Numbered from the stretch's first letter, positions 1,066 to 64,000 are shown. The stretch: 64,000 bases of DNA from Acidobacteriota bacterium (GCA_965217775.1 CBDCJH010000002.1:3318686-3382685); one strand, 5' to 3'. Notes: generated by a model from the letters alone, not told the origin. A program made the numbers and translations.

Positions 1066-2541
1066 ATGACGGAGGGATGGGGCCGCTGTCACCACCTGTT
1101 CATTCTCACACTTCTGTTCTGCCAAGCTGGCGCAAAGGATCTCCGGGAGCCTCTTGTCATCGGCTCCCGGCTGGAGCTGTTCGTGGACGACTACCTCATC
1201 GAGTCCACCCACGGAGTCGACCTTCGGCTGCATAGTCCGCGGCTTGCCGAGAAGGCCATCTCGTTCGACCGGCCCTGGGAGGGGGTGACCAGCGGCGTGG
1301 TCACGGTCTTCAAGGATGGCGACCTCTATCGGATGTACTACCGGGGGGACAGTAGCGAGCCCGATCACTATGTGGTCCCGTCTCTTCTGCGGAAGGGGGA
1401 ACAGGTGATTCCGGCCCACGATGAGGTGACCTGCTACGCCGAGAGCAGGGACGGAATCACCTGGACCAAACCGAATCTGGGGTTTTTCGAGTTCCAGGGC
1501 TCCAAGCAGAACAACATCGTCTGGACGGAACATTCTCACGCCTTTGCCCCCTTCAAGGACGCGAACCCGGCAGCACCATCATCCCAGCGCTACAAGGCCT
1601 TCGGAATCGAGCGCCGGGACGGCAAGAGCACCCTGGCCGGGTTCGTCTCCTCCGACGGTATTCACTGGAGCAAGATCCGCGAAGAGCCTCTCCTCACCGA
1701 CGGGGCCTTCGACAGTCTCAACTTGGCGTTCTGGGATCCGGTGAGGGAACACTACGTGGCCATCTACCGCGACTTCTGGTACGGAGTCCGGACCATCAAA
1801 CACGCTACCTCCAACGATTTCATCCACTGGACTCGCGGCGAGTGGGCCAGCTTCGGCGACAGGCCGCCCGAGCACCTCTACACCAACGCGGCCCAGCCCT
1901 ATTTTCGGGCGCCCCACATCTATCTTTCCTTCCCCATGCGCTTTCATCCCTGGCGAACCTTTCATGCCGACGCTCCCACGCCAGGCCTGTCCGACGGCGT
2001 CTTCATGACCAGTCGAGACGGCGTCCATTGGGATCGGCGTTTTTTGGAGGCCTTTATCCGTCCCGGCCGGGATCAGAGGAACTGGATCCAACGGACCAAT
2101 GTGACGGCTCCCAGCGTGGTGCCCACCGGGCCGGACGAGATCTCCCTCTACGCCCATCGCAACTACACCTCACCCAGCCACTACTACCAGCGCCTAGTCC
2201 TGCGTACCGATGGGTTCGTTTCTGCTCACGCCGACTACAACGAGGGAGACATAGTTACCAAACCTCTGGTGTTCGAAGGCGAGAACCTGGTCCTCAACTA
2301 CGCCACTTCGGCCCTGGGAAGCATCCGGATCGAGATCCAGGACCAGGCAGGCCATCCCCTGCCCGGCTTTTCGCTGCAGGAATCACCCGTCATCTTCGGC
2401 GACCAGATCGAGCGGGAAGTCGACTGGAAGCGTCCTGCCAGCCGGACCGATCGAGGACCTTTGAGCCGGCTCGCCGGCCGCCCGGTTCGCCTGCGTTTCG
2501 TCATGAAGGACGCCGACCTTTATTCGTTGCAGTTCCGTTAG
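1066..2541 (+). CDS. putative secreted glycoside hydrolase-like protein, unassigned beta-propeller + beta-sandwich family (type A, LELFVD-type)
   Basis: Signal peptide present. Conserved blocks shared with 5 paralogs: LELFVDDYLIE, PWEG, YRMYYRG, CYAESRDGITWTKP, NNIV, SSDGIHW, AFWD, TNAAQPYFRAPHIY, SRDGVHW, LRTDGFVS, GSIRIEIQD, RLRFVMKDADLYS. ATG 1066 follows AAGGAAG; the ORF-track start at 1039 is a TTG overlapping the upstream stop. Confidence 0.8.
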   Translation: MTEGWGRCHHLFILTLLFCQAGAKDLREPLVIGSRLELFVDDYLIESTHGVDLRLHSPRLAEKAISFDRPWEGVTSGVVTVFKDGDLYRMYYRGDSSEPDHYVVPSLLRKGEQVIPAHDEVTCYAESRDGITWTKPNLGFFEFQGSKQNNIVWTEHSHAFAPFKDANPAAPSSQRYKAFGIERRDGKSTLAGFVSSDGIHWSKIREEPLLTDGAFDSLNLAFWDPVREHYVAIYRDFWYGVRTIKHATSNDFIHWTRGEWASFGDRPPEHLYTNAAQPYFRAPHIYLSFPMRFHPWRTFHADAPTPGLSDGVFMTSRDGVHWDRRFLEAFIRPGRDQRNWIQRTNVTAPSVVPTGPDEISLYAHRNYTSPSHYYQRLVLRTDGFVSAHADYNEGDIVTKPLVFEGENLVLNYATSALGSIRIEIQDQAGHPLPGFSLQESPVIFGDQIEREVDWKRPASRTDRGPLSRLAGRPVRLRFVMKDADLYSLQFR

Positions 2542-2594
2542 TCGGCCGGTATGGCGACGAGCCAAAGGGCAAGCGCGAACCGGAGGAAGACACC

Positions 2595-2860
2595 ATGACA
2601 TTGACCACGGCTCAACTGAAACAGTACGAGCAGGAGGGCTTCGCCGTCGGCGGGTGCATACTGTGTGTGAATGAGCTGACCCGACTCCGTGCGGAGATCG
2701 ACAGTCTGATCGAGACTCTTTCTCCGAGGGAGACATCCCGAGAACATGCCCTCGGTTCACTATGGCCGGCCCTACTTCCTGGATTTGCTTCTGGACCAGC
2801 GGCTGTTGGACGTGGCGGAGAAGATCCTGGGGCCCGACATTACGCACTTTACCTCGGGGA
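2595..2860 (+). pseudogene. phytanoyl-CoA dioxygenase (PhyH)-like gene fragment, frameshifted and 3'-truncated
   Basis: A GGAGGAAG RBS precedes the ATG. The N-terminus MTLTTAQLKQYEQEGF..ELTRLRAEIDSLIE resembles a PhyH N-terminus. Similarity continues in another frame (YFLDLLLDQRLLDVAEKILGPDI, ORF 2746-3009) and is then lost. There are only about 90 codons before the next gene. Confidence 0.45.
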
Positions 2861-3031
2861 TGTCGTCACCCGTGGAGCCCGGACCCGAAGCGGTGACGGA
2901 CATCGAGGTCTTCATCGACCATCACCTCATGGATCGTCTGGTTGGAGTGTCGCTGCGTGGCTACACTTTCTGCTGCGCGACATCGAACTGCACGCTCTGC
3001 AATTCGTGAAGGGCTGAGGAGAACCCGCACC

Positions 3032-4483
3032 ATGCACCTGAGAACCAGTGCCATTTTCGCCGCTCTGGCGACGATCATCGCCGAGGGGGTCGCTCCTGCG
3101 GCCGATCCCGTCGACATCGGAACACGGCGAGAGCTGTTTGTGGATCATTTCCTGATCGACAAGGTCGCCGGCGCCCGTCTTCAACTCCACCATCCCCGCC
3201 GGGAAGGTCCAGCCGTGCATTTCGTGGACAAACCCTGGGAGGGCCACCTCAGCGGCTACGTGACCGTGCTCAAGGACGGTCCCCTGTACCGAATGTACTA
3301 TCGGGGCCGTTCCGAATTGGGACGAGGGGACCGAAACGTCGTCGAGGTGACCTGTGTGGCTGAGTCGGAGGACGGCATTCGCTGGACGAAGCCGGCGCTG
3401 GGCTTTTATGAAATCCATGGGACCAGGGAAAACAACGTGGTACTGGCGGGCAAGCCTCCCTACTCGCACAACTTCTCTCCCTGGATCGACACGCGGCCCG
3501 GGGTGCCCGCCAAGGAACGGTACAAGTCCCTTTCCGGCCTGTATCCGGAGGGGTTGGCCCTCTTCGTCTCGGCCGACGGCCTGCGCTGGACGCTGGATAA
3601 GGAGCCAGCCGTCACCTACCCGGGCAAGGCCTTCGACAGCCAGGCGTGTGCCTTCTGGTCAGACAATGAGGGGCAGTACGTCTGTTATTTCCGGACCTTC
3701 AAGAACGGGATGCGCTGGATCTCTCGGACCACCAGCCGGGACTGCCGGAGTTGGACGACACCAGTCGAGATGCACTATGGAGACACCCCACCCGAGCAGT
3801 TCTACACCAATATGACCCAGCCCTATTACCGCGCCCCGCACATCTACATCGCTCTGGCACAGCGCTTTTTCCCCCGCCGCTCGGCGCTGCCGGAAGCGGA
3901 GTCCGCTCGCTTGGTGTCCGACGCGGCACTGAGGGGCTTCAGCAGCGACGTGGCCCTCATGAGCACCCGGGGGGGCAGGGTCTATCATCGAACTTTTCTC
4001 GAATCCTTCATCCGACCCGGACGCACCGCCCGTGACTGGGCAAGCCGCAACAACACCGCCGCCTGGGGCATCGTTCCGGCCGCAGCCGATCCCCGAACTC
4101 TCTACATTTACCGCCAAGCGGACGTGGCTCAGCCCACGAACCACGCGATTCGGTACTCGCTTCGAGTGGATGGCTTTGCCTCGGTGTGGGCTCCTTTTGC
4201 GGGCGGCGAGCTGATCACAAAACCGCTCATCTTTCGGGGAAGCCGACTGGAGATCAATTTCGATACGTCCGCAGCGGGCTCCATCCGTGTCGAGCTCCAG
4301 GATCCATCAGGCCGCCCACTGCCCGGGTTTGTACTCGAAGACTGCGAAGAGATACTCGGAAATGAGATCAGCAGAGTCGTCCGCTGGCGCAACCGAGAGG
4401 ACCTCGGCGCCTTGGCCGGCAAGCCGATCCGCCTCCGATTCGTCATGAAGGACGCCGACCTCTACTCTCTCCGATTCCAGTAG
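3032..4483 (+). CDS. putative glycoside hydrolase-like protein, type A propeller/sandwich family
   Basis: GAGGAG RBS and signal peptide MHLRTSAIFAALATIIAEG. Same conserved blocks as 1066-2541 (RELFVDHFLID, YRMYYRG, CVAESEDGIRWTKP, PYYRAPHIY, LRVDGFAS, GSIRVELQD, RLRFVMKDADLYS). Confidence 0.85.
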   Translation: MHLRTSAIFAALATIIAEGVAPAADPVDIGTRRELFVDHFLIDKVAGARLQLHHPRREGPAVHFVDKPWEGHLSGYVTVLKDGPLYRMYYRGRSELGRGDRNVVEVTCVAESEDGIRWTKPALGFYEIHGTRENNVVLAGKPPYSHNFSPWIDTRPGVPAKERYKSLSGLYPEGLALFVSADGLRWTLDKEPAVTYPGKAFDSQACAFWSDNEGQYVCYFRTFKNGMRWISRTTSRDCRSWTTPVEMHYGDTPPEQFYTNMTQPYYRAPHIYIALAQRFFPRRSALPEAESARLVSDAALRGFSSDVALMSTRGGRVYHRTFLESFIRPGRTARDWASRNNTAAWGIVPAAADPRTLYIYRQADVAQPTNHAIRYSLRVDGFASVWAPFAGGELITKPLIFRGSRLEINFDTSAAGSIRVELQDPSGRPLPGFVLEDCEEILGNEISRVVRWRNREDLGALAGKPIRLRFVMKDADLYSLRFQ

Positions 4484-4758
4484 GACTTGGCACGCACTTA
4501 TCATCGGAGGGTGCGCAACGGCGTTCGAGGGACCGAAGAATCTGGACAGGATTAAGAGCAACGATACCGGGTTCGCCGTGGCCAAGATGGCGGAAATGAC
4601 TCGTCTTGAGAGTATGCTTGGTGCTTGACCCTGGTCCTTGCCTTCCCGTGACCCCCGGCGCAGAGCCCGACGGCGTGCGTCAAGGTGCCGTCTGGAATTC
4701 AGCCACCACTCCGGTGATCGACTTGACACGATCGCCGAGGATCTGCGAGTTCTTGCGC

Positions 4759-6108
4759 GTGCACGCCAGGCACCTGATCCTCCTTGCCACCATGACCGCC
4801 GCGTCGGTCCCTGCCTGTACGGTGGAAACCGATTCCCGGCGGAACCGCCCCAACATCGTCCTGATCATGGCGGACGATCTGGGCTACGAGGCCCTGGGCG
4901 CCTACGGAGGCAGCTCGTACTCGACACCTATGCTGGACCGATTGGCCCGCCAGGGGATTCGCTTTGACCACGCCTACTCACAGCCGCTTTGCACCAACAC
5001 CCGGGTACAGCTGATGACAGGCCGCTACCAGCACCGCTACTGGCAGGCCTTCGGCATCCTGCCGAACCGGGAGCGAACCATTGGCCATCTGATGCAGGCG
5101 GCGGGCTACCGGACGCTGATTGCCGGGAAATGGCAGTTGCACAGCTATGACCCAGTGGACTATCCCGGCGCGGAGGAGAGACGGGGAACGGGAATGCGGG
5201 GGGCCGAATCGGGATTCGACGAGTATCTACTCTGGCACGCCTGGCATGCCGAGGACAAAGGATCACGGTATGCGGATCCCACCTTCGACCTCAACGGGGA
5301 GCTGATCAAGGAGAAAATGGGAGTTTACGGATCCGACATCTTCGTGGACTACATCAACGATTTCGTAGAACGAAACCGCGGCGTTCCGTTCTTTGTCTAC
5401 TACCCGATGGTGCTTACACACGACCCCTTCGTACCCACTCCGGACAGTCCCCGATGGCACGATGAATCCCGGCGTCACCTGCAGGATCCGGCCTATTTCG
5501 CCGACATGGTCGCCTACATGGACAAGCTGGTTGGAAAGATTGTGGCCATCCTCGACCGGCTGGATCTGCGCCAAAAGACTCTCGTCTTGTTCTACGCCGA
5601 CAACGGCACCCACAGGTCGATTTCATCGCGGCTCGGCAGCCGGATGATCCAGGGTGGAAAGGGAAAGACGACCGATGCCGGTACCCGAGTGCCGATGATC
5701 ATCAGCTGGCCCGGAACCGTGCCGGCCGGCGTGGTGTCAGAGGATCTCATCGACTCGGTCGATATCTACCCGACGCTCGCAGAGCTGGCGGGCACCCGGC
5801 TCCCAGACCAACCCCTGATCGACGGCATCAGTTTTGCGGATCGGCTATTGGGCCGGGACGGCGATCCCCGCAACTGGATCTTCGTAAACTTCGAGCCGAG
5901 ACCGGGATGGGACAAGGACAAGTACTCGGAACTCACCTTCGTCCGCGACCATAAATACAAGCTGTACGATAACGGAGAGCTCTATGACGTCGAATCCGAT
6001 GTGCTCGAAGCCAACCCCATTCAGGCGTCCGTGCGCACCAAGATGCAACGGCGGATCACCGAGAAGTTTCAGAGCGTCATGGAGAGACTCCAGGGCCGCA
6101 AGGAATGA
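4759..6108 (+). CDS. S1 sulfatase (lipoprotein), copy 1 of a duplicated pair, non-canonical C-T-N-T-R active-site motif
   Basis: Sulfatase blocks NIVLIMADDLGYE, PLCTNTRVQLMTGRY, GKWQLH, YADNGTH, GKGKTTDAGTRVP, DIYPTLAEL, ELYD. Lipobox ..SVPAC. The start is set at a GTG conserved in the paralog at 11249; the ORF-track start at 4606 would add an implausible leader. Confidence 0.9.
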   Translation: MHARHLILLATMTAASVPACTVETDSRRNRPNIVLIMADDLGYEALGAYGGSSYSTPMLDRLARQGIRFDHAYSQPLCTNTRVQLMTGRYQHRYWQAFGILPNRERTIGHLMQAAGYRTLIAGKWQLHSYDPVDYPGAEERRGTGMRGAESGFDEYLLWHAWHAEDKGSRYADPTFDLNGELIKEKMGVYGSDIFVDYINDFVERNRGVPFFVYYPMVLTHDPFVPTPDSPRWHDESRRHLQDPAYFADMVAYMDKLVGKIVAILDRLDLRQKTLVLFYADNGTHRSISSRLGSRMIQGGKGKTTDAGTRVPMIISWPGTVPAGVVSEDLIDSVDIYPTLAELAGTRLPDQPLIDGISFADRLLGRDGDPRNWIFVNFEPRPGWDKDKYSELTFVRDHKYKLYDNGELYDVESDVLEANPIQASVRTKMQRRITEKFQSVMERLQGRKE

Positions 6109-6259
6109 CCGGCGGGCGCCGACCCGACTGCGCCTGCGGCCTCCCTCCATCGCCCGCCGTCGATTCGTAGCCAATCCGGGTGCCATTTTCGGGAGGTGAA
6201 ACTGGCGCGAACCCTCATTAGCGACGCTCCATCCGCACCTCATGCAGGAGCCTCCGCTG

Positions 6260-6375
6260 CTACTGCACGGTCGCGGCATGAGAGGGGTCATCGGCAAGAT
6301 TCACCAGTTTCTGAGGATCCTCCCGATGATCGTAGAGTTCCCGGCCCCTCATGCCTTCCTCCCAGTCGCTGAAAC
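6260..6375 (-). pseudogene. sulfatase C-terminal fragment
   Basis: The minus-strand frame reads ..[38 protein letters not shown]. This matches the ELYD-x-x-x-DP-x-x-x-x-NLA signature found near sulfatase C-termini. There is no upstream catalytic part. Confidence 0.45.
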
Positions 6376-7385
6376 GGCAGGGCGCGATCTTCATCTTCAC
6401 GACCGACAACGGCTCGTCGGCCGGAGACCTCGTGTTCAACGCAGGCATGCGGGGCAGGAAGGGGAGCGAATACGATGGGGGCCATCGGGTGCCGTTCTTC
6501 ATCCACTGGCCGGAAGGTGGCCTCATCGGCGGAAGGGACGTCGACCCCATCACAGCTCACGTCGACGTGCTGCCGACTCTGGCTGACCTATGTGGGATCC
6601 GGGCGCCGAAGGGCGTGAAGCTGGATGGGCGGAGCGTCCGCCCCCTGTTGTTCGGTGAGGCGGCCCCGGAGGATGGCAGTTGGCCCGACCGGATCCTGGT
6701 CACGGACTCGCAGCGGGTCAAGGATCCACTCAAGTGGCGCAAGAGTTCGGTCATGACGAGCCGCTGGCGGCTGGTCAATGGAGAAGAGCTCTACGACATC
6801 AAGTCCGACCCTGGCCAACGGCAGGACGTCGCCCCGTCGCATCCGCAGGTGGTGGCACGCCTGAGGGACTTCTACGAATCCTGGTGGGCCGAGTTGGAGC
6901 CGACCTTTCGGCAGGACGCCCGGATCTATCTGGGACACGAAGCGGACAATCCGACGACTCTGACCAGTCACGACTGGATCGCCACGGACTATACCCCCTG
7001 GAACCATTCCCACATCCGCGATGCCCTGACCGGTGCCGGCCACATCGGTCACTGGAACGTCCACGTGGCCCAAAAGGGCGACTATGAGTTCCGCCTGCGT
7101 CGCTGGCCGGCAGCAGCGGACACGCCGATCACGACCGGCCTCGACCCCGGCGAACCGGTCCCGGGCGAGCCGGCCTTCCGGACCACGCCGGGGAAGGCTC
7201 TGGCGATCGTGAAGGCTACCTTGGAGATCGCTGACCGGGAAGTGGAGAAACCCGTCGCCCCCGGTGCCAACGACGTCGTCTTCAACCTGAATCTGAGCCC
7301 CGGCCCCGCCACGCTGACGGCCCGCTTGATCGCCAGGGAAGGCCAAGCCTACGGGGCATACTATGTGTCGGTGAAGAGACGGTGA
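6351..7385 (+). pseudogene. 5'-truncated sulfatase (central and C-terminal part only)
   Basis: It starts inside the conserved block [11 protein letters not shown], followed by [28 protein letters not shown] and ELYDIKSDPGQ, plus a long C-terminal extension. The N-terminal roughly 230 aa carrying the metal ligands and the formylglycine motif are absent. Confidence 0.65.
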
Positions 7386-7481
7386 AGCCGGTCCCACCCC
7401 GACGCGCGCAGTGAGAAGCTCAGTGGAGAACGTCATCGGCACCCGCAACGGATGCCGGGTTCGTGCCAGCCTTCCTATCAA

Positions 7482-7640
7482 CAGTCCGCGGCAAAAGTAC
7501 CGCGTCGCACCGCCCCCGGGGCTACGCTCGACGACAAGGCGCGACGAGGAAGCAGACTCGACCGGATGTGCCCGGGGAGCAACGCATTCCGCCGGAATGC
7601 AGACCCGGTCGAATGCCGTGACGACGTTGGCCCCGGGCTG
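7482..7640 (+). repeat. MITE-like repeat, family A, copy A1
   Basis: About 159 bp, alignable with 9220-9379, 12669-12826 and (reverse) 24594-24750. Imperfect terminal inverted repeats CAGTCCGCGGCAAAAGT.. / ..CCCCGGGCTG. Flanks are TCAA/TCAT. Confidence 0.75.
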
Positions 7641-7691
7641 TCATCCCGCTTACCCGACGAGTTGGAGCGGACGGCAGACTTTCAGTCGAGA

Positions 7692-9167
7692 TCACAACGT
7701 CCAACCGGGACGATATTCCCGCCTGAGCAGCGCGTTGGCCGCCGGAGAGTCGGTGACCTGCAAATTGGCGGCGTCCCAGTCGAGTTTGGCGCCGGTGCGG
7801 TAGGCGAGGCTACCCAGCATGACCGCCTCCGAGATGGGGCCGGAAGCGCCGAAGTTGCAGCTCGTCGCGCTCCCGGTCTTACAGGCGGCAATCCACTCGG
7901 CGCGATGGCCGACTTCAGCCGTACGACGCCAGTCCGGGTGAGCCTTGTAGGCGGCCACCCATGGAGCGCGAAGACCGATTTCCGCACCGATCGACGGCGG
8001 GAGGTTCGGCTCGGGCGGCTTGAAGTCCGCGAACTTTTCGGCGGGCCAGAGCATCCGCTGCCCGTAGCTTGCCAGCAGCATTCCCTCGGTGCCCACGAAG
8101 ACGCCCCAGGGCCAGTCGGGAAACTCGTTCTCCGCAAAAACTGCCGGTGGTTGAGTTCCATGTGTCCAGGTCAGCGTGACCGGCGGCATCTCTCCGCGGG
8201 CCGGGAAACGGTAGCGGACGTGAAGCTGGCCGGGTGTCGTCTCGGGGTGAGGTGGCTGCCCCTCGGCCTCCACTGAGACCGGATAGCGAAGATTCAGAGC
8301 CCGGAAGGCCAACGTCAGGTAGTGGCAGCCCATGTTGCCGAGATTTCCGGAGCCGAAATCCCACCACCGATGCCAGTTGCCGCCGCAACCGCGGGAATAG
8401 GTGGGATGATAGGGGCGGTAAGGCGCCGGCCCCAGGAAAAGATCCCAGTGAAGCCCTTTGGGGATGGGCGGCGTCTCCGTCGGGCGGTCACTTGGGCCGC
8501 GTCCCGAGCGGAGCCAGATATGGCATTCCTCCACCTCGCCGATGGCTCCGGTACGGATCAGTTCGACGACGCGGCGGTGGTTGTCCGAGGCGTGCATCTG
8601 GGTTCCCAATTGTGTCGCCACCTGCTGCTCGGCAGCCACCTTGGCCATCATGCGGGCCTCGAAGACCGAATTGGCTCCCGGCTTCTCGCAGTAAACGTGC
8701 TTGCCGAGCCGCATCGCCGCGACACTCGCCGGAGCGTGGTTGTGGTTTGGAGTACTCACCACCACGGCGTCGATCTGGCGGCCGAATTCGTCGAGCATCC
8801 TCCGGTAATCGTTGAATTTCTTTGCTCCTCCATAGCGGGCGAAGGCGTGGCTCGGAGGATTCCGGCGTCCTGGAGTCAATTCGGCCGCCGCCCGTTCGTC
8901 CACGTCGCAGAGAGCCACGATGTTCTCCCCGGTCATTTCCGGCTGCGAGGACGGCTTGACTCTCATGCCCGACTGGAATTCCACGTTTTCCCCCGCGATG
9001 TGGGCGAGGTTCCATCCCCCCATTCCGCCGGCGCCGACAACGGCGACATCAAGCTTCTCATTGGCCGGGTAGCCCCAAACCGAACCGCTGTTCCGGAGAA
9101 TCACCAACCCCGCCGCTGCACGGCCCGCAGTGCTGAGAAAATGTCGGCGCTTCCACTGGTTCGTCAT
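7692..9167 (-). CDS. Gfo/Idh/MocA-family NAD(P)-dependent oxidoreductase, TAT-exported
   Basis: TAT signal KRRHFLSTAGRAAAG, Rossmann motif VAVVGAGGMGG, and family blocks IVALCDVD, VVVSTPNHNHA, GKHVYCEKP. Confidence 0.85.
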   Translation of the reverse strand: MTNQWKRRHFLSTAGRAAAGLVILRNSGSVWGYPANEKLDVAVVGAGGMGGWNLAHIAGENVEFQSGMRVKPSSQPEMTGENIVALCDVDERAAAELTPGRRNPPSHAFARYGGAKKFNDYRRMLDEFGRQIDAVVVSTPNHNHAPASVAAMRLGKHVYCEKPGANSVFEARMMAKVAAEQQVATQLGTQMHASDNHRRVVELIRTGAIGEVEECHIWLRSGRGPSDRPTETPPIPKGLHWDLFLGPAPYRPYHPTYSRGCGGNWHRWWDFGSGNLGNMGCHYLTLAFRALNLRYPVSVEAEGQPPHPETTPGQLHVRYRFPARGEMPPVTLTWTHGTQPPAVFAENEFPDWPWGVFVGTEGMLLASYGQRMLWPAEKFADFKPPEPNLPPSIGAEIGLRAPWVAAYKAHPDWRRTAEVGHRAEWIAACKTGSATSCNFGASGPISEAVMLGSLAYRTGAKLDWDAANLQVTDSPAANALLRREYRPGWTL

Positions 9168-16413: not shown

Positions 16414-16414
16414 C

Positions 16415-57086: not shown

Positions 57087-57119
57087 CTGATGGAGATTAT
57101 AAAGAGTGGTTGACACGCT

Positions 57120-57740
57120 CTACAGTTCTGGTGACACGCTCGGCCTATCGGCCCACGTTCCGCCACCGGCGGCAGAAACCCCAGCCGCCAAGATGTTGAT
57201 CGCAGCGTTATGGTCCCTGTCCATCCGGAGTCCGCAGGTGCGGCACCTGTAGGTCTCACTGCGTCCCGGATCGTGACGACTGCCGCACCTGTGACAGTCC
57301 TGCGACGTGTATTTCGGGTCCACTTCTACGAACTCCCGACCGGCCCACTCTGCCTTGTACTGGAGTTGATTGCGTAGAAGTCCCCAGGATTGGGTGAGGA
57401 TCTCCCGATTCAGGCCCTTCTTGTGCAGGCCCTTGGTGGACATCCCCGTGATGTTCAGCTTCTCGACGGCGATGAGTCCGTGAGAACGCACGATCCGAGT
57501 CGTGGCCCGGTGGCACGTATTCCGGTTCCTGACCTTCTCGCGGTAGCGTAGCCGTGCCAATTGCCGGACCCGCTTCTTGCGGCGGTTCGATCCCCGCTTG
57601 CAACGGGCAACTCTTCTCTGCTGACGCTTGATCTCCGCCCAATTGCGGCGGTGGCGTTCGATCCGTTCTCCGGTGGACAAGACGGCCCGTTTACGGACTC
57701 CAAGGTCGATCCCCACCGCAGCGTCACAACGGGGGAAATC
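57120..57740 (-). mobile_element. tnpB: IS200/IS605-family tnpB (RNA-guided nuclease) remnant, 5'-truncated
   Basis: RuvC-I AVGIDLGV, RuvC-II IAVEKLN, zinc finger CHRCG..CRTCG and RuvC-III DRDHNAAINI are all present. Homology starts only about 3 residues before RuvC-I, so the N-terminal WED/REC half is missing. No tnpA was seen. The residual ORF overlaps the sulfatase start at 57745 in antisense. Confidence 0.8.
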
Positions 57741-57744
57741 CGAG

Positions 57745-59175
57745 ATGTTCCGATCTTTCGCCGCAGTGAACTCAGTGCTGTTCTCCGGACTTCTTGCGAT
57801 TCCGGGAATGGCGTCCGAGAGGGTGAACCTGATCTCCATCGTCACCGACGACCAGGCTCAATGGGCGGTCGGAGCCTACGGCAACCGGGACATTCTCACC
57901 CCGAACATGGATCGGTTGGCGGAGGAGGGGGCCCTCTTCCACAACGCCTTCGTGGCCACTCCGGTGTGCTCTCCCGGCCGGGCGTCGTTTCTGACCGGGC
58001 TCTACCCCACCCAGGTGGGGATCTCCGATTGGATAGCGCCGGTGGGTTCCGACGTGGGAGTGGGGATCGCCTCGAAGTGGACCACTTGGCCCGAGACATT
58101 GCAGGCCAACGGCTACGAGACGGCTCTGGTGGGGAAATGGCATCTCGGCCTCGAACCCCAATTTCACCCGACGCGGCACGGCTTCGATACTTTCTACGGT
58201 TTTCGAGCCGGAGCGGCGCGGCCTCAGAATCCGGAGCTGGAGGTCGAGGGCAAGACCCAGGAGGTGGAGGGATACATTGCCGACCTCCTGGTCGATCGCG
58301 CGATCCGTTTCCTGGAAGACAACCGGAGTCGACCCTTCGCCCTGCTCCTCCATTTCCGGGCTCCCCACCGCCCCTATCTTCCGGTTCCTGAGGAGGACTG
58401 GACTCCCTTCCGACTGATGGATCCCGAAGTGCCGGATGTGCCCGGCCTGTCCGCCGGCCACATCAAGCAGCTGACCCGGGAATACTACGCCAGTGTCCAC
58501 TCCGTGGACCGGAATCTGGGGCGTCTGATGTGGAAAATGCGGCAGTTGGGCCTGGACTCGAACACCATCGTCCTGTTCACCAGTGACCACGGTTACATGA
58601 TTGGGCATCATGGGCTTCACTCCAAAGGAAACGCATATTGGGTCGCCGCCGGCGTTCGGAATACCGGCAGGACCTACGGCTGGTATCCCATGATCCCCAA
58701 CATGTACGAGGAATCCATCCGGGTCCCGCTGCTGATTCGGTGGCCGGGTCGGATCCGGCCCGGGACGAGGATCGATGAACCTGTCTCCAACGTCGACATC
58801 TTCCCCACCCTCCTTAAGCTGCTGGGAATACCCGCCCCGTCTCGAGTCAAACTGGAGGGACGGGATTTCTCGCCTCTGCTGCGGGGCGAGAAGATCCCGT
58901 GGCGAGAGGAGATCTTCGGTCAGTACGACGTGCACAACAACGGACTGGCGTTCATGCGGATGATCCGGACCGATCGTTGGAAGCTGGTCCGGTACCATCT
59001 GAGCAACTACCTCGACCGTCTCTACGATCTGAAGCAGGACCCTGGAGAGATGAGGAACCTGTACCGGGATCCCGGGCACCAGGAGGTTCGCCAGGATCTG
59101 ACCAGACGGCTGGAGTCCTGGCAGCGTTCCATCGACGATCCGGTCCTGCGTTGGGAGAAAGCCATGGGGCGCTGA
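57745..59175 (+). CDS. S1 sulfatase, canonical CSPGR motif
   Basis: Signal peptide MFRSFAAVNSVLFSGLLAIPGMA. Blocks NLISIVTDDQAQW, TPVCSPGRASFLTGLYP, GKWHLG, TSDHGY. It resembles 26410-27873. Confidence 0.9.
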   Translation: MFRSFAAVNSVLFSGLLAIPGMASERVNLISIVTDDQAQWAVGAYGNRDILTPNMDRLAEEGALFHNAFVATPVCSPGRASFLTGLYPTQVGISDWIAPVGSDVGVGIASKWTTWPETLQANGYETALVGKWHLGLEPQFHPTRHGFDTFYGFRAGAARPQNPELEVEGKTQEVEGYIADLLVDRAIRFLEDNRSRPFALLLHFRAPHRPYLPVPEEDWTPFRLMDPEVPDVPGLSAGHIKQLTREYYASVHSVDRNLGRLMWKMRQLGLDSNTIVLFTSDHGYMIGHHGLHSKGNAYWVAAGVRNTGRTYGWYPMIPNMYEESIRVPLLIRWPGRIRPGTRIDEPVSNVDIFPTLLKLLGIPAPSRVKLEGRDFSPLLRGEKIPWREEIFGQYDVHNNGLAFMRMIRTDRWKLVRYHLSNYLDRLYDLKQDPGEMRNLYRDPGHQEVRQDLTRRLESWQRSIDDPVLRWEKAMGR

Positions 59176-59236: not shown

Positions 59237-59605
59237 GTGGAATCGCTGCTGGAGGGGACCCGTGTGGAGCCGGGACCGATCCGTCCCCTCCGGCCGGTCG
59301 GGTACTACCACCGTGAGCCGGAAGTGGGGGCTCCGGAACGGGAGTCGCGGCACGTGCTGCCGGCGCAGGAACACGGACGGTGGTCCTATCCTTCGGTTTT
59401 TGTCATGGCAGACCGCGTGTTCATCGCCCACACCTACAGCATTTACGAAGACCACCCCACCAAGGCCCGACTCGTGCTTTCCAGCCGCCGGGAAGACGGG
59501 TTCAACCAGAAGCTCAAGGTCTTTCCCCTGACTTGGTTCTACGGGGAAAAGGAGCCGGCCGACAACCCCTTCCTGCCGCGAGTCCGGAGGCCGGCGCGTC
59601 CCTGA
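59237..59605 (+). pseudogene. probable C-terminal fragment of a BNR/sialidase-like propeller protein
   Basis: ..WSYPSVFVMADRVFIAHTYSIYED....QKLKVFPLTWFYG resembles the last blade and closing strand of sialidase-like propellers. It has 122 codons, a GTG start, and no N-terminal domain or signal peptide. Confidence 0.35.
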
Positions 59606-59613
59606 GGCGAAGC

Positions 59614-59868
59614 AATGGAAAACTGAACTTGGAGACGGGCGCCGGGGGATCGGTCCAAGTGGAAATTCAGGACGAGAAAGGCGTTCCCATCCCCGGTTTC
59701 ACGGCGGCGGAAGCGGACGAGATCAACGGCAACCACGTGCGGATCATAGCCTCCTGGCAGGGCTCCCGGGACCTGCGCTCCCTGGAGGGCCGGACCGTCC
59801 GGTTGCGTTTCGTGATGCGGGACGCGAACCTCTACTCATTCCAGTCCGTCGCCCGGAAAGAGCCCTGA
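59614..59868 (+). pseudogene. isolated C-terminal beta-sandwich fragment of the propeller/sandwich family
   Basis: NGKLNLETGAGGSVQVEIQDEKGVPIPGFTAAEADEINGNHVRIIASWQGSRDLRSLEGRTVRLRFVMRDANLYSFQ aligns with the last roughly 85 aa of type A proteins. There is no propeller part and no in-frame start nearby. Confidence 0.6.
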
Positions 59869-59894: not shown

Positions 59895-62774
59895 TCAGGG
59901 GCGGTAGTCGACCCAGACCGGCGACCCCCAGGCCATCTCTCCGTCTTCCTGGATCACGCGAAGATAGTAGTAGCTCTCCCCCGGCTCGGAGGCTCCGTCC
60001 GCGTACTGGAATTCGACTTCCCTCTTGTCCGGCGCCGCAGAGTAGACGATCCGGTTGTCCTTGATGACGTCCACGCGGCGGATGGGCTTTGTGCCCAGCA
60101 GATTGGCCTGGATTCGGATCGGCGTCGCGCTCTTGAATGCCTCCCCCATCAGGTGCTCTCCGTCCGATCCGAGGAATCGGACATCCAGGATGATGTTGTC
60201 GGTGGCGGCGTAGGCCCGCCGGGCTCGGATAGCCTCCAGGAGCCCCTCCGGCGTCAGCTCCTCGGCCAGGAGGCAGGCGTAGCTGATGTGGGTGGAGAGG
60301 TGATCCGAGGAGGCGATGAAGCCCAGCTTGTAGCCCTTCTCCAGCGCGCTCCAGGCCGTGCCCAGCCGCCGAAAGGGTCGATTGTCCTGCTCCAGAGTGG
60401 AACTGGGCTGAACCGTCATGGGCTGGGGGGCACCCGGATACTCGTAGGTCTCCCGCATTCCCTGGAAGATCTCCAGCAGGTGCTCGACCTTGGGATCGTT
60501 GTCGCGCCAGTCGGTACCGGACCCGGTCGCCATGGTGTGGGGGATGGAGGTCCCGTTCTTCCGGCGGAGGTGCCAAAAGAGCCGCTCAGCCCCCTCCAGC
60601 CCCAGGTGCTCGGCGGTCTCGATGGGGAGGATCGAGGTTCCGCGGCGAATGAAGAAGACGTTGCGGTGGCCGTTGGGGAATTCGAGGCTCCGCTCGTAAC
60701 CGTAGAAAGCGGCGAAGTTCTCCAGTTGGAAGAGGTCGGCGACCTTCTGGTTCCGCCACCAGTTGTAAGGTTCAACGATCTCGTGGTTGTGGTCCGTGAC
60801 CCCCAGGAAGTCCATCCCCGCCGCATCCCGGGCGTATCGATAGGCGTCGACGAGGGAGCCGTCCCCCCCGCCGTCCAGGGAGATGTCCGTATGGCGGTGC
60901 AGGTCTCCCCTGTAGATGGCGTAGGTCCGCCCTCGGGAATGGATGCGGTAGGACCGGATTCGCTCCAGATCCCCGGGCTCGTCCGGATGGGCCGGTTCGA
61001 AGGGTTCGACCGCTGGAAGCTGGAGGGGAGACAACTCGATCGGGGCGGATTCTCCCTGGCCCAACACCCCCACCATGACCTGACCATGGTTTGCCAGATA
61101 AGACTTGGTGGTCCGATTGTCGGTGGGCCATGCGGCCCAGACGCGCCCGTCGGGGTCCAGGGCGGACACCGGCATCATGTCGTTCCGGCCAGCGCTTTTG
61201 AAGAGTGTGGCAGGACGAGTCCACCGGGACCCGTCGTATCGCAGGCAGGCGATCACCCAGGCGGCGAAGTAGCGCCCCCGGCCCTCGGCCTGGCGCATCG
61301 TCAGGCGCCGGACCAGCAGCCAGGGATGACCCGACGCATCCAACTGGAGATGGGGCATCTCCCATTTCCCCTCCCCCAGGTGAACGGCGGGATCCTGAAG
61401 GGTGGTCATCCACTTGCCGTCGGCCAGACACGCGATCCGCAGCGTCCGGGTCTCATAGAGCTCCGTTCCCTTGGACTGGCCGCTTTGATCGACGAGCCGC
61501 CCCGTATCCTTGCCCCACTGAGGACCCGACTCGTGCCAGGCGATCCAGACCCGCCCCCGGCCGTCCATGGCCACCGTGGCGCCGGCCTCGAAGCGAGGCG
61601 TTGCGGCCACCCTCCGGACTTCCTGCCACCGGCCCGACCGCCGCAGCCTGAGATAGACGTCGTAGTTGCCGGAAGCGTAGCCATCCCAGGCCACGGCCAA
61701 ATCACCACCGGGACCCGCGGCCACCGAAGGCCACCAGTTGTTTCCCCCAGCGGCCGGACCCTCACTGATGCGGACCTCCCGGCCCCAGCGTCGGCCGTCG
61801 AAGTCCTGGGCCACGATCTGGGTCACGCCGTCAATGGTCCTCTGCCAGACCAGCCAGAGCCTGCCCTCCGAATCCGTGACGGCGCGGTGGTAAACGTCGG
61901 GACTCGGATGATCGGTGAGCCGCTGGCGGGCCGACCATCGCCGCCCATCGAAATTCTTCGCGTACAGGTCCCAATTCCCCTCCACCTGTACGGACCAGAC
62001 GACCCAAACCCGGCCTCTCGAATCTTCGGCCAGCGCCGTTCGGAAGGCGTCAACGCCGGCATCCAAGAGATGGACCGGGCCCCAGCCCGACTCGCCCCGG
62101 GACCGGGCCAGCACCAGGTCCGCCTCCCCCTCGACGTATTCCTGCCACGCGGCCCAGAGCGTGCCTGATCGGGTCGCCGTCAATGACGGGTAGTCCTGGA
62201 TGTCGAAGCGCTCTGAGGCCAGAGGGGACGAAGGCGGGACCGCTTCCACCAGGACGGCTCCCTCCAAAAACGTCTCGGATTGAAATAGCCGGATGCCCCC
62301 CGGCCGAAAACTGAACGCTCCCTTCTCCGTCTCGATCCGGATGGGCGGGTCTCCCGGATTCTGCAGGACGTTGACGATGACGCTGGGATGGCGCAGCGTG
62401 CTTTCGCCTCTTCGCATCCAGCTCATGCGGGTGGCCGCCACCCAGCCCAGCTTCCCCTTGATCTGATCGTTGGGGAGTTGCGGATCGGCGTCGACCGAGT
62501 GGATGCTGTCGAGGAAGCTGTGGCGGTAGATGTTGGCCCGGAACTCGTCCGATTTCAGCTCGAGCTTCTGTCCCGGGACCGGGACCAGCCTGCCGCTCCA
62601 GATTCCGGGTTCTTCGTCGAGGAGCCCCAGCCGGACCCGGAAGGAGGATTCGGGGAGCAGAACCTCAGTCGACTGGGGCGGCGGAGTGCCGGCGGGCCGG
62701 CATTGGGACAACCCGATGGCCAATACCAGCACTCCGAGGCCCGATAACGAGAACGACACGCGTCCGACTGCCAT
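59895..62774 (-). CDS. large lipoprotein: repeated beta-propeller-like blades + C-terminal PHP-type (CehA/McbA-like) metallohydrolase domain
   Basis: Lipobox IGLSQC. The central region has about 8 repeats of the type G-R/T-(L/V)W(V/A/L)(V/A)W....W(D/G)(L/I)Y. The C-terminal part has GDLHRHTDISLDGG, FLGVTDHNH, SIPHT and FIASSDHLS, consistent with a PHP-fold His/Asp metal centre. Confidence 0.7.
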   Translation of the reverse strand: MAVGRVSFSLSGLGVLVLAIGLSQCRPAGTPPPQSTEVLLPESSFRVRLGLLDEEPGIWSGRLVPVPGQKLELKSDEFRANIYRHSFLDSIHSVDADPQLPNDQIKGKLGWVAATRMSWMRRGESTLRHPSVIVNVLQNPGDPPIRIETEKGAFSFRPGGIRLFQSETFLEGAVLVEAVPPSSPLASERFDIQDYPSLTATRSGTLWAAWQEYVEGEADLVLARSRGESGWGPVHLLDAGVDAFRTALAEDSRGRVWVVWSVQVEGNWDLYAKNFDGRRWSARQRLTDHPSPDVYHRAVTDSEGRLWLVWQRTIDGVTQIVAQDFDGRRWGREVRISEGPAAGGNNWWPSVAAGPGGDLAVAWDGYASGNYDVYLRLRRSGRWQEVRRVAATPRFEAGATVAMDGRGRVWIAWHESGPQWGKDTGRLVDQSGQSKGTELYETRTLRIACLADGKWMTTLQDPAVHLGEGKWEMPHLQLDASGHPWLLVRRLTMRQAEGRGRYFAAWVIACLRYDGSRWTRPATLFKSAGRNDMMPVSALDPDGRVWAAWPTDNRTTKSYLANHGQVMVGVLGQGESAPIELSPLQLPAVEPFEPAHPDEPGDLERIRSYRIHSRGRTYAIYRGDLHRHTDISLDGGGDGSLVDAYRYARDAAGMDFLGVTDHNHEIVEPYNWWRNQKVADLFQLENFAAFYGYERSLEFPNGHRNVFFIRRGTSILPIETAEHLGLEGAERLFWHLRRKNGTSIPHTMATGSGTDWRDNDPKVEHLLEIFQGMRETYEYPGAPQPMTVQPSSTLEQDNRPFRRLGTAWSALEKGYKLGFIASSDHLSTHISYACLLAEELTPEGLLEAIRARRAYAATDNIILDVRFLGSDGEHLMGEAFKSATPIRIQANLLGTKPIRRVDVIKDNRIVYSAAPDKREVEFQYADGASEPGESYYYLRVIQEDGEMAWGSPVWVDYRP

Positions 62775-62904
62775 GCAGGATCCTCCGAAAAAGGTGGTGA
62801 TCTGGCCAGTCTCAACAATAACAGCCGAGTGGGACTGTCCAGTGGATCGGAGATCGAGCGGATGTTCGGCAGGCTTTCTTGTGCCGGCACCCGGTACGCC
62901 GGAA

Positions 62905-64000
62905 TCAATGAAACCGGAATGCGTACAGATGAGCGTCGCGGAGGCGCACTCGCAAACGAACCGGACGGACGGCCCAAGGGGACAGGTCGGCCTGGGGGTC
63001 CCAGCGGACGTCCCCTCCGGTTCGATCCCCGACGATTCTGGGACAGTCGTTCATGCCCGCGCCTGGTAGCGGGGCTCGGGTTTCGTCCTGGAGCTCGACC
63101 CGCAGGCCGCCACCGCCACTCGTGCGGTAGTTCAACTCCAACCGGCTGCCCGTGAAGACGATGGGCCGGGTCGTGAACTCACCCCATCCTTCATAGGGGC
63201 CTTCCACCGAAACGAAGCCGTCGCTCCGCAGCGAGCACCGCCGGAGCCGGCATTCCGGCGAGCGGTACAGCTCCGTGTAGTACATGGAGATCTCGTTCCG
63301 CCCGGTGGGCACGACCCCCTGCCCCATGATGGGATTCCGGTCCACCCAATTGCGTTCGTCGAGACCGGGGCTCAGGAAAGACTTCCGGAGCGGCCGCCGC
63401 CAATGCACTCCGTCCCGGCTGGTGGCCAATTGAACGTCGGAGAGTCCGGTCTGATAAGGCAGGCTCTTGTCGTCCCTGACGTAGAACACCATGGGGAACA
63501 TGAGAAAACTGCGGGCCGCCCGGAAATAATTGACGGCGGCGTTGGTGTAGTGATGGAGGTTGGCGGGATCCTTCAGGTCCCGGGCCAACACCAACTCCGG
63601 CTCTGACCAGTGGAGGAAATCCCGGGACTCGCAGCGCCGAATCGCCCGGCGGCCACCTTTGAAACGGGACTTGTCCACTTCGGGCCGGTTGTGGACATAG
63701 CGCCGTCCTGCGGGATCCCACATTACGGGACCTCCAGTCGAGGTGTCGACGCCGCGCATATGGATCACGTAGCGCCCGTGCTCATCGTCCCACAACAGGG
63801 TGTTGTGGCTGTCGAAGGGTCCCGAGGTGACCAGGGGAGTCTCCCGCACCGGCTTCCAGCGGATACCGTCCGAAGAGACATAACCGGGAAGCCCGCCGGA
63901 AGAGGCGATCATCTTGTAGCGTTCGGGACTTCCCGGCGGCTCGTTGGGGTCCAGGATCTGGCTGGCGTTGTGCAGCTCGGCGCCGCCCAGGATGTTGTTG
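62905..64000 (-). CDS. putative glycoside hydrolase-like protein, type A propeller/sandwich family (5' end outside window)
   Basis: The frame stays open to the window edge (..NNILGGAELHNASQILDPNEPPGSPERYKMIAS..). Blocks SSDGIRW, LLWDD, TNAAVNYFRAARSF, SRDGVHW, LRSDGFVS, GGLRVELQD, RLRVRLRDAHLYAFRF. Confidence 0.8.
   Translation of the reverse strand, partial: NNILGGAELHNASQILDPNEPPGSPERYKMIASSGGLPGYVSSDGIRWKPVRETPLVTSGPFDSHNTLLWDDEHGRYVIHMRGVDTSTGGPVMWDPAGRRYVHNRPEVDKSRFKGGRRAIRRCESRDFLHWSEPELVLARDLKDPANLHHYTNAAVNYFRAARSFLMFPMVFYVRDDKSLPYQTGLSDVQLATSRDGVHWRRPLRKSFLSPGLDERNWVDRNPIMGQGVVPTGRNEISMYYTELYRSPECRLRRCSLRSDGFVSVEGPYEGWGEFTTRPIVFTGSRLELNYRTSGGGGLRVELQDETRAPLPGAGMNDCPRIVGDRTGGDVRWDPQADLSPWAVRPVRLRVRLRDAHLYAFRFH

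Follow-up and report, generated by a model that had tools for sequence, protein, structure and literature searches.

Gene content of the island

The region described here is a 64-kb stretch of the chromosome of an uncultured Acidobacteriota bacterium (GCA_965217775.1, CBDCJH010000002.1:3318686-3382685; below, the window means this whole stretch of 64,000 nucleotides), in which nine intact S1 sulfatases lie among ten paralogous propeller proteins of a family that we call UF, together with a sialidase, a GH109-like enzyme and other exported proteins (Table 1). Such a concentration, with nine sulfatases and ten members of a single family in approximately 39 genes, is far above any genomic background. 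The G+C content is 62% overall and stays between 59 and 66% all along the window; as DNA this rich in G+C yields many spurious open reading frames (ORFs), genes were chosen by third-codon-position G+C. The genes were then scanned against Pfam and NCBIfam, and 10 longer leftover ORFs were scanned separately. No tRNA genes were found in the window.

A first-pass annotation, made from the sequence alone, had listed nine intact and two fragmentary S1 sulfatases, a count borne out by the PF00884 matches and by the repeat and strain comparisons, and ten propeller/sandwich paralogs, all of which were located by mutual homology. The GH109-like enzyme, the DUF1080 protein, the Gfo/Idh/MocA oxidoreductase exported by twin-arginine translocation (TAT) and the major facilitator superfamily (MFS) transporter on that list were all matched by Pfam, and the single CarboxypepD_reg-type TonB-dependent receptor corresponds to g26, which matches PF25183 and PF13620. 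The list spoke of GH33 sialidases in the plural: one is intact (g21), but the second (g09) is truncated to 233 aa. The N-termini, read by eye, agree with the statement that almost all of these proteins carry signal peptides, since signal, lipoprotein or TAT peptides are visible on nearly all enzymes.

The same annotation reported no regulator, SusD homolog or sulfatase-maturating enzyme in the window, and our scans agree. SusD_RagB or SusD-like domains, formylglycine-generating enzyme (FGE) and anaerobic sulfatase-maturating enzyme (anSME) domains were all missing from the window genes and the ten leftover ORFs, and in the same set no regulator domain (hybrid two-component system, extracytoplasmic function (ECF) sigma/anti-sigma or SusR types) scored above threshold, a sub-threshold Reg_prop match in g38 being the sole regulator-type trace. 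With no SusD and an Acidobacteria-type TonB-dependent receptor as the only outer-membrane transporter, the description of the island as built without SusC/SusD logic holds. Genes beyond the original list encode an M19 dipeptidase, an FG-GAP protein, two GWxTD proteins, a TauD-type dioxygenase, an alpha/beta hydrolase, an Asp/Glu/hydantoin racemase, an Amidohydro_2 protein, a 959-aa lipoprotein with a PHP-type metallohydrolase domain and the 548-aa protein g22.

Table 1 Genes, gene fragments and mobile-element remains in the window (MITE, miniature inverted-repeat transposable element).
Feature	Position	Strand	Description	Evidence and remarks
g01	2-1042	+	C-terminal part of GWxTD-like protein, cut by left window end	35% identical to g27; partial protein without Pfam match
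g02	1066-2541	+	UF subfamily A, signal peptide	42-44% identical to g03, g13, g14, g29
g03	2942-4483	+	UF subfamily A	Mutual UF homology; likely start ATG at 3032
g04	4606-6108	+	S1 sulfatase, lipoprotein, C-T-N-T-R instead of CxPxR	PF00884 6e-54; 81% identical to g08
g05	6351-7385	+	C-terminal sulfatase fragment, pseudogene	Matches PF00884 profile positions 233-301 only
MITE copy	7485-7640	+	Diverged	74% identical to 12672 copy
g06	7692-9167	-	TAT-exported Gfo/Idh/MocA oxidoreductase, BT2158-like	PF01408, PF19051; RRHFL TAT motif
MITE copy	9221-9382	+	TTAA on both sides	Repeat comparison
g07	9506-10588	-	M19 membrane-dipeptidase family, no signal peptide seen	PF01244 4e-51
Sulfatase fragment	10932-10991	+	Copy of g18 (27886) signal-peptide coding part	
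Gene-fragment pair	10932-11063	+	g18 signal-peptide coding copy, then UF 3' end	Marks segmental duplication
UF fragment	10998-11063	+	3' end (C-terminal)	Repeat/tblastn search
g08	11213-12598	+	S1 sulfatase, lipoprotein, C-T-N-T-R	PF00884 2e-54
MITE	12672-12826	+	155 bp, CTAT target-site duplication	10-bp terminal inverted repeats
Group II intron fragment	13075-13218	-	D1-D4	Rfam RF02003, 85 bits (gathering 49), E 3e-17
g09	13387-14088	+	Truncated GH33/BNR_2, 233 aa, YRIP kept, C-terminal half lost	PF13088 positions 3-149 of 277; 33% identical to g21
g10	14104-16413	+	Laminin_G_3 lectin-like domain then UF domain, subfamily C	PF13385 9e-17; UF homology
g11	16367-17908	+	S1 sulfatase, lipoprotein, S1_16-like, CSPTR	PF00884 9e-58; PDB 9fo1 1.7e-126
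g12	17895-19262	+	FG-GAP repeat protein	PF13517 6.5e-29
g13	19844-21361	+	UF subfamily A, lipoprotein	UF homology, N-terminus
FG-GAP gene fragment	21418-21576	+		95% nucleotide identity to 18987-19132 (repeat family D13)
g14	21584-23107	+	UF subfamily A, reference for structure model	AlphaFold2, Foldseek, homologs
g15	23174-24625	-	GH109-like NAD-dependent glycosidase, TAT signal	PF21252 1.9e-65; PF01408 7e-6; TIGR01409
MITE copy	24599-24748	-	Inverted, diverged, between g15 and g16	Repeat comparison
g16	24845-26413	+	S1 sulfatase, lipoprotein, CAPSR	PF00884 4e-53
g17	26410-27873	+	S1 sulfatase, CSPTR	PF00884 3e-45
g18	27886-29418	+	S1 sulfatase, CSPAR	PF00884 6e-61; best PDB 3ed4 2.8e-85
g19	29502-31133	-	S1 sulfatase, lipoprotein, CTASR	PF00884 4e-57; Sulfatase_C PF14707; best PDB human arylsulfatase A 1.7e-76
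g20	31171-32463	+	MFS transporter	PF07690 5e-14
g21	32543-33865	+	GH33 exo-sialidase, signal peptide, FRIP	PF13088 7e-28; PDB 1eur 4e-37 full-length
g22	33887-35533	+	GH127/GH146-like (alpha/alpha)6 barrel + beta-sandwich, 548 aa, unclassified, no signal peptide	AlphaFold2 pLDDT 90.8; Foldseek HypBA1 1e-13
g23	35681-38011	+	Laminin_G_3 + UF domain, subfamily C	61% identical to g10
g24	38086-39717	-	UF subfamily B	46% identical to g28, 25-27% to subfamily A
g25	39884-40867	+	Exported protein of unknown family	ORF starts with g10/g23 N-terminus fragment (repeat family D12)
g26	41059-44385	-	TonB-dependent receptor: CarboxypepD_reg, Plug, OMP_b-brl_4	PF25183 6e-183; PF13620 7e-18
g27	44753-46549	+	GWxTD domain protein	TIGR04514 2e-34; PF20094
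g28	46621-48165	-	UF subfamily B	UF homology
g29	48190-49836	-	UF subfamily A	UF homology
g30	50398-51417	-	TauD/TfdA-family 2-oxoglutarate dioxygenase, cytoplasmic	PF02668 1e-29; NCBIfam matches weak
g31	51564-52433	+	Exported alpha/beta hydrolase, esterase-like	Weak Peptidase_S9, Esterase, AXE1 matches
g32	52387-53400	+	Asp/Glu/hydantoin racemase family	PF01177 4e-28
g33	53423-55000	+	S1 sulfatase, lipoprotein, S1_16-like	PF00884 2e-60; 75% identical to g11
g34	55091-55882	-	DUF1080 / 3-keto-disaccharide hydrolase family, exported	PF06439 6e-44
g35	55998-57116	-	Amidohydro_2, lactonase-like, cytoplasmic	PF04909 4e-21; weak L-fucono-1,5-lactonase match
TnpB-like gene (IS605 OrfB)	57120-57845	-	Truncated, 241 aa	PF07282 (Cas12f1-like TNB) 7e-27; PF01385 (OrfB_IS605) 4e-15
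g36	57628-59175	+	S1 sulfatase, CSPGR	PF00884 1e-62; SGSH_C 4e-34; start probably near 57745
UF fragment	59602-59862	+	C-terminal, ~80 aa	tblastn 44-51% identity to g03, g14, g29
g38	59895-62774	-	959-aa lipoprotein, C-terminal CehA/McbA-like (PHP-type) metallohydrolase domain	NF038032 2e-19, under cut-off
g39	62905-63999	-	UF subfamily A	N-terminus past right window end; UF homology

Sulfatases

PF00884 is matched over its full length by all nine intact sulfatases (E 3e-45 to 1e-62), each of which carries a formylglycine-type motif. This motif is CxPxR or CxAxR in seven of the nine and C-T-N-T-R in g04 and g08. Among the 120 closest database homologs of the latter two proteins, 70 have the Asn variant (CxNxR), 45 have Pro and 2 have Ser, and the dN/dS (non-synonymous to synonymous substitution rate ratio) of 0.27 between g04 and g08 indicates purifying selection. 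A CxNxR sulfatase maturation motif would be a candidate for new biochemistry. The FGE or anSME that serves these sulfatases is presumably encoded elsewhere in the genome.

The nine proteins represent at least seven lineages, with mutual identities of only 26-35%. When subfamilies were sought through neighbours in the PDB, only g11 and g33 could be placed, whereas g08, g36, g18 and g19 were left without a close solved relative. As g11 aligns over its full length with 9fo1, a kappa-carrageenan sulfatase of subfamily S1_16 (E 1.7e-126), this nearest-neighbour assignment predicts that the pair is S1_16-like. S1_16 also includes Gal/GalNAc-4-sulfatases active on animal glycans. The longer of the two sulfatase fragments, g05, is the C-terminal third of a 599-aa sulfatase, the full gene of which is kept in a 98-99% identical strain (contig L088, 2750-4549).

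The UF family

The ten UF paralogs, about a quarter of the window genes, fall into subfamilies A (g02, g03, g13, g14, g29 and g39; 34-46% identity), B (g24 and g28) and C (g10 and g23). Pfam and NCBIfam gave no match for any of the ten, and a PDB sequence search returned marginal GH32 and GH130 matches only. The family is nevertheless very large: a word-indexed search gave at least 7,800 matches, nearly all unnamed or annotated as "hypothetical protein", and a profile search of 1.84 billion representatives recovered 3,649, 13,488 and 23,429 clusters (at 50% identity) at E<=1e-30, 1e-10 and 1e-3, respectively. Its carriers belong to Acidobacteriota, Planctomycetota, Verrucomicrobiota, Bacteroidota, Poribacteria, Chloroflexota (Dehalococcoidia), Hydrogenedentota, Latescibacteria and other phyla, and include the cultured Mariniphaga sediminis, Stieleria mannarensis and Novipirellula sp. 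SH528. Literature searches found no published description of UF.

Three Asp-boxes are conserved across the three subfamilies, as are D43, W73-E74, Y94, N132-N133, D154, K166, Y279, R338 and W362; subfamily A has nine more nearly invariant arginines. We regard E74 and D154 as candidate catalytic residues, and the arginine cluster of subfamily A may be a sign of an anionic substrate. The subfamily A copies tested (g02, g03, g13 and g29) have closer relatives in other genomes than within the window (for g02, 61% versus 44%), which rules out recent tandem amplification. The UF panel therefore consists of old, distinct lineages, and differing specificities are the simplest reading of the ten copies.

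The subfamily A protein g14 was modelled with AlphaFold2 on a 51-sequence alignment (pLDDT 92.8, pTM 0.89). The top 50 Foldseek matches of this model are almost all GH130, GH137, GH32, GH43 or GH93 proteins, at probability 1.00. The nearest solved folds are GH130 (1vkd, 4udg), GH137 (BT_0996), GH32 and GH43, at 8-16% identity, and TM scores normalised to the query range from 0.27 to 0.45 among the 50 matches listed, the best GH130 and GH137 matches reaching ~0.41-0.45. As modelled, UF is a propeller followed by a C-terminal beta-sandwich, without a close solved relative; the propeller is probably five-bladed, as judged from the superfold of its neighbours.

UF could be assigned to neither of its closest candidate families. 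Weak Pfam matches to GH32N occur in 13 of the 51 aligned members (best 2.6e-7) and to BNR_2 in six, g14 having none; no score exceeds the Pfam gathering threshold and the catalytic nucleophile of GH32 is not conserved. Glyco_hydro_130 is matched by none of the 51 members, and the UF profile aligns locally with blade 1 of GH130 enzymes only (E 1e-6), with query-normalised TM scores of 0.33-0.43. Identity with GH181 (the Akkermansia sialidase Amuc_1547), raised by one match labelled Akkermansia, was rejected, there being no GH181 or Amuc_1547 structure among the 50 Foldseek matches listed or the PDB profile matches. GH181 has been described as six-bladed (PMC12018670).

The genomic context of UF was recorded within 10 kb in 80 loci of reference genomes, as raw counts. 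At 18 loci, drawn from six phyla or more, a BNR_2 sialidase-like gene is present, in many cases as the immediate neighbour of UF; a Gfo/Idh/MocA gene is present at 19, directly adjacent at five. UF and BNR_2 are also fused, in both orders, and further UF fusions involve acetyl-esterase, CBM-like, fn3 and planctomycete cytochrome domains. In Mariniphaga sediminis, the genes, in this order, for an ECF sigma factor, an anti-sigma factor, SusC, SusD, two UF proteins, two BNR_2 proteins, an SSF transporter, an HpcH aldolase, an aldo-keto reductase, a Gfo/Idh/MocA protein, an SDR protein and an Amidohydro_2 protein form a complete polysaccharide utilisation locus (PUL) feeding a sugar-acid or deoxy-sugar route. 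BNR_2, UF, FG-GAP, SusD and SusC genes lie together in a marine Bacteroidota single-cell genome, and Draconibacterium has UF amid GH123, phosphodiesterases and g22-like genes. At two loci of other Acidobacteriota (L083 7472-9644 and L085 7634-9806), genes for a Rieske/ring-hydroxylating oxygenase and a BD-FAE/Abhydrolase_3 esterase lie ahead of UF. The occurrence of esterases of this type before UF, and fused to other UF members, hints at acylated substrates.

Other enzymes and transport

Over its full length g21 aligns with 1eur, a sialidase of Micromonospora viridifaciens (E 4e-37), its "FRIPAIV" facing "YRIPAL", and its sequence identifies g21 as a genuine GH33 sialidase. For the oxidoreductase g06, the closest window match to NF058561, the model of the BT_2158 glycoside 3-dehydrogenase, the score was 312 bits (E 7e-93), under the equivalog cut-off of 750 bits; together with the DUF1080 protein g34 it suggests an oxidative cleavage route. 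The related contig L088 has two tandem copies of TAT Gfo/Idh/MocA genes (4644-7733) where the window has one.

No Pfam, NCBIfam or PDB sequence match was found for g22, whose family has at least 630 members, nearly all of them unnamed or "hypothetical" and some fused to F5/8-type C or Laminin_G_3 domains. The residues that do not vary across 44 aligned homologs are His, Glu, Asp and Arg. No Cys is invariant, and therefore the Cys chemistry of GH127 is not conserved, which suggests another catalytic mechanism on a GH127-type scaffold. Some GH127 members are 3,6-anhydro-D-galactosidases that act in carrageenan catabolism.

The neighbours of the receptor g26 are g25 and the GWxTD protein g27. Orthologs of g38 (L083 16364-19246; L085 18607-21464) adjoin UF, DUF1080 and sulfatase genes in other Acidobacteriota; no family could be assigned to the N-terminal 600 aa of this protein.

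Mosaic assembly and mobile elements

The window contains at least 16 strand-defined gene blocks, a strand-switching pattern that fits stepwise accretion of modules and does not support co-regulation. The sister chromosome OY764083.1 has a compact locus of ~13 kb comprising a dehydrogenase (-), UF (+), GH109 (-), two sulfatases, an MFS transporter, an alpha/beta hydrolase, a racemase and a sulfatase. Relative to this locus, the window has insertions at 9220-21554 (12.3 kb, g07-g13), 24749-27651 (2.9 kb, g16 and g17) and 32480-51551 (19 kb, g21-g30); in L082, a 98% relative, the second inserted segment and the sialidase are already present. A segmental duplication gave rise to a fragment and g08 from the 3' end of g03 and g04, at 79-85% nucleotide identity (repeat families D3, D9 and D18). 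Paralog pairs have dN/dS of 0.21-0.27 with dS from 0.38 to more than 2, which indicates purifying selection. The left flank of L088, with WYL regulators, Cu/Zn superoxide dismutase and toxin-antitoxin genes, has its counterpart in the sister chromosome rather than in the window. As that strain also has the sulfatase intact, the first 6.3 kb of the window therefore came by a rearrangement that truncated the sulfatase.

Four MITE copies lie in the window; copies are found at the island's synteny breakpoints or beside them, and a short way upstream of g06 and of g16. These elements of 155-162 bp have 10-bp terminal inverted repeats (CAGTCCGTGG/CCACGGGCTG), 4-bp duplications (CTAT, TTAA) and a long-hairpin fold, and recur beyond the window at L008 2479-2638, L082 3649-3808 and L088 7787-7948. 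We take the 4-bp YTAR-like target to resemble that of IS5-group elements. The site of the 12672 copy is precisely empty in the 99% identical strain L088, and therefore this element moved recently. Interpretation of the 170-nt intergenic repeat as a riboswitch, a promoter duplicate or a group II intron domain, the last from a likeness to D1-D4 seen by eye, was discarded: it has no Rfam match at E<=10, and the empty site in L088 identifies it as a MITE.

A separate group II intron fragment does occur at 13075-13218, where no intron-encoded protein or reverse-transcriptase ORF was found nearby and domains V/VI were undetected; it is presumably what is left of a decayed intron in the g08-g09 gap. 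The TnpB remnant, located between g35 and g36, runs into the 5' extension of the g36 ORF.

Relatives and habitat

The first-pass annotation had placed the sequence outside Bacteroidota, and taxonomic placement, with 86-99% nucleotide identity to contigs of Acidobacteriota metagenome-assembled genomes (MAGs), assigns it to Acidobacteriota; the receptor type and the GWxTD proteins are consistent with this. The closest relatives of g14 are on a European Nucleotide Archive (ENA) contig (98%), on OY764083.1, an "Acidobacteriota bacterium" MAG chromosome (92%), and in "Candidatus Aminicenantes bacterium COS4_bin_49" (82%). Nucleotide identity between the window and OY764083.1 is 86-92% in the syntenic blocks, and positions 7688-22745 are 98-99% identical to a 1.65-Mb ENA contig (L088). 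Poribacteria are among the related MAGs in the same series of accessions, and a sponge-style bin name is carried by one relative, so that a sponge origin is likely, as far as names of related MAGs can tell. Sponge symbionts and MAGs are reported to be enriched in arylsulfatases (arylsulfatase A) and GH33 (PMC5649159, PMC8163846).

Proposed function and alternative explanations

We consider it reasonably probable that the window is a chromosomal region in which an uncultured Acidobacteriota has gathered, piece by piece, exported enzymes for sulfated, sialylated host-type glycans. The first step would fall to the S1 sulfatases, lipoproteins and periplasmic enzymes from seven or more lineages, which would strip sulfate esters; terminal sialic acid would then be taken off by the GH33 sialidase and GalNAc by GH109. 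The TAT-exported BT2158-like glycoside 3-dehydrogenase and the DUF1080 3-keto-glycoside hydrolase could provide an oxidative route past linkages that resist ordinary glycosidases, and the ten UF proteins a panel of exo-acting glycosidase-like enzymes of differing specificities, sharing the predicted five-bladed propeller and beta-sandwich. Uptake would proceed across the outer membrane via the single TonB-dependent receptor and across the inner membrane via the MFS transporter, with cytoplasmic finishing by the GH127-like protein, the Amidohydro_2 protein, the racemase, the TauD-type dioxygenase and the M19 dipeptidase. The island is not one operon; in this view a compact core, as in the sister genome, expanded as segments were inserted or duplicated, with mobile elements marking the joints. 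Sialic acid and GalNAc, both named in the first-pass annotation, stand as reasonable components of the target because a true GH33 sialidase and GH109 are present, but the choice it offered between mucin, glycosaminoglycan and algal glycans is impossible from sequence. A toolbox for sulfated sialoglycans, assembled stepwise, is most likely.

Several observations weigh against this proposal. The sulfatase subfamilies are resolved for few copies, the rest having no close solved relative, and the best-resolved pair resembles a kappa-carrageenan S1_16 sulfatase, so that an algal substrate fits as well as a host one. UF falls below every curated family threshold, the GH32 nucleophile column is not conserved in its profile alignment, and its catalytic residues are not placeable without model coordinates. 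A sulfatase lies within 10 kb of UF in only 11 of the 80 loci; a link between the two as a rule for all phyla was therefore dropped, and the link may be particular to this lineage. The strand blocks, the lack of a regulator and the mosaic history speak against one co-regulated system. For the sponge origin, the evidence is what related MAGs are called rather than metadata of the window, and the gene functions are predictions from sequence and models.

The earlier picture of one coherent machinery for one glycan is not supported by a locus with at least 16 strand blocks, three insertions, gene fragments and mobile-element remains, and the same evidence raises the question of whether there is a single system at all. 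The region could instead be a recombination-prone "parking lot" of small independent modules for different substrates, with no single target glycan. Gene fragments at the joints, MITEs on synteny breakpoints or adjoining them (with one copy that is polymorphic among strains of 99% identity), the TnpB remnant, the group II intron fragment and the at least seven sulfatase lineages would all be expected of such a region, as would an M19 dipeptidase, a TauD-type dioxygenase and a racemase without obvious glycan role. Nevertheless, the same families recur together, with UF, GH109, sulfatases, MFS and sialidase in L082 and UF, sulfatase, g38-like protein and DUF1080 in both L083 and L085; the inserts consist nearly entirely of sulfatase, UF, sialidase or transporter genes again, which suggests selection for one broad task, and the paralogs are under purifying selection. 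We therefore regard unrelated modules as unlikely, though as an explanation to be taken seriously. That the enzymes are aimed at a sulfated galactan of algae or some other polysaccharide of marine algae (carrageenan-, ulvan- or fucoidan-like), and not at a host sialoglycan, seems to us distinctly improbable. The match of g11 and g33 to the S1_16 carrageenan sulfatase, the GH127/GH146 fold of g22 in view of the anhydrogalactosidases of GH127, and the resemblance of the Mariniphaga UF locus genes (HpcH aldolase, aldo-keto reductase, SDR, Amidohydro_2) to non-phosphorylative 6-deoxyhexose catabolism all speak for an algal target, but Pfam and NCBIfam gave no match in the window to a family with carrageenase, agarase, fucosidase, fucanase or polysaccharide lyase in its name, the window does contain a true GH33 sialidase and GH109, the names of the closest relatives are typical of sponge-derived MAGs, and S1_16 has its animal-glycan members.

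A further question concerns the ten paralogs themselves, which the first-pass annotation had called hydrolase-like; fold and context agree with this term, but no curated family was matched and the activity is inferred from fold and context alone. UF proteins could be non-catalytic glycan-binding or scaffold proteins, or else lyases, phosphorylases or transglycosidases, given the lack of any curated match and of a conserved GH32 catalytic motif, the GH130 phosphorylases among the best structural neighbours and the many conserved arginines, which could bind phosphate or sulfate. We think this rather unlikely: signal peptides put UF outside the cytoplasm, which is unusual for phosphorylases, all close folds and the fusion partners (BNR_2, esterases) are catalytic, and E74, D154, N132-N133 and Y279, which lie outside the Asp-boxes, are kept across very divergent subfamilies, as is typical of an active site.

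Beyond a toolbox for sulfated sialoglycans, we tentatively propose that UF is a large unclassified carbohydrate-active family acting with GH33/BNR_2 sialidase-like enzymes on anionic glycans, of which the island would be the densest known concentration (ten copies of three subfamilies in 64 kb), with the GH127-like family lacking catalytic cysteines and the CxNxR variant adding new biochemistry; this wider claim we hold to be possible rather than probable. Sulfated animal and algal glycans are a large, hard-to-degrade carbon pool, and mechanistic knowledge of their breakdown comes mostly from Bacteroidota. The island offers a view of how an Acidobacteriota bacterium arranges sulfated-glycan breakdown without SusC/SusD, and it brings to light, in informative surroundings, two enzyme families that have not been classified, of which one is very large. 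UF is an exported propeller family which current annotation leaves as "hypothetical protein" and which neighbourhood and fusion repeatedly tie to sialidase-like enzymes. Ten diverged copies beside sulfatases and a sialidase, together with orthologs in cultured strains, provide a practical starting set for finding its activity; if this were new, it could allow the re-annotation of many genes now labelled "hypothetical" in genomes from the sea, from soil and from symbionts.

Comparison with known systems

At the level of single proteins, UF shares the propeller fold class of GH130, GH137, GH32, GH68, GH43 and GH62, with the propeller followed by a beta-sandwich as in GH32, and profile alignments show a blade-1 "W-E" motif and an Asp-box-like "A-x-S-x-D-G-x-x-W" in common with GH130. 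It differs from GH130, GH137, GH32 and GH43 in its low sequence identity to them (10-15%), in reaching no Pfam gathering score and in the arginine cluster of its subfamily A. Similarly, the model of g22 resembles GH127/GH146 (HypBA1, BT_0349) in its predicted (alpha/alpha)6 barrel and beta-sandwich (Foldseek E 1e-13, TM 0.5-0.6), but identity is 13-16%, there is no Pfam match, and invariant histidines are found instead of the Cys nucleophile and the Zn-Cys3 site. A counterpart of the BT2156-2160 route of Bacteroides thetaiotaomicron, in which glycosides are cleaved oxidatively through 3-keto-glycosides, is suggested by a BT_2158-like dehydrogenase with a TAT signal and a DUF1080 protein in the window; unlike in that route, g06 scores under the cut-off, g06 and g34 are 46 kb apart, and no BT2157-type lyase or BT2159-type partner was identified in the window.

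At the level of the whole island, the clustering of exported S1 sulfatases, GH33, other exo-glycosidases and a TonB-dependent transporter is like that of the Bacteroides PULs for mucin O-glycans and glycosaminoglycans, as is the sequential "desulfate, then trim" logic of host-glycan PULs. Unlike Bacteroidota PULs, the island has no SusD and no hybrid two-component or ECF/anti-sigma regulator, its CarboxypepD_reg/OMP_b-brl_4 receptor is not beside the enzymes that it would serve, it comprises many transcription units, and its host belongs to Acidobacteriota. It is also akin to the sulfatase-rich regions of Planctomycetota and Verrucomicrobiota, of which fucoidan degraders are an example (PMC11685898), and to the "sulfated polysaccharide guild" of sponge symbionts (PMC5649159, PMC8163846), all of which are non-Bacteroidota and combine many sulfatases with glycosidases without a SusC/SusD pair; membership of the sponge guild is suggested for the island by the names of related MAGs alone. 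From those regions it differs in its phylum and in that its dominant glycosidase-like part is an unclassified family, and not GH29, GH95, GH107 or GH168.

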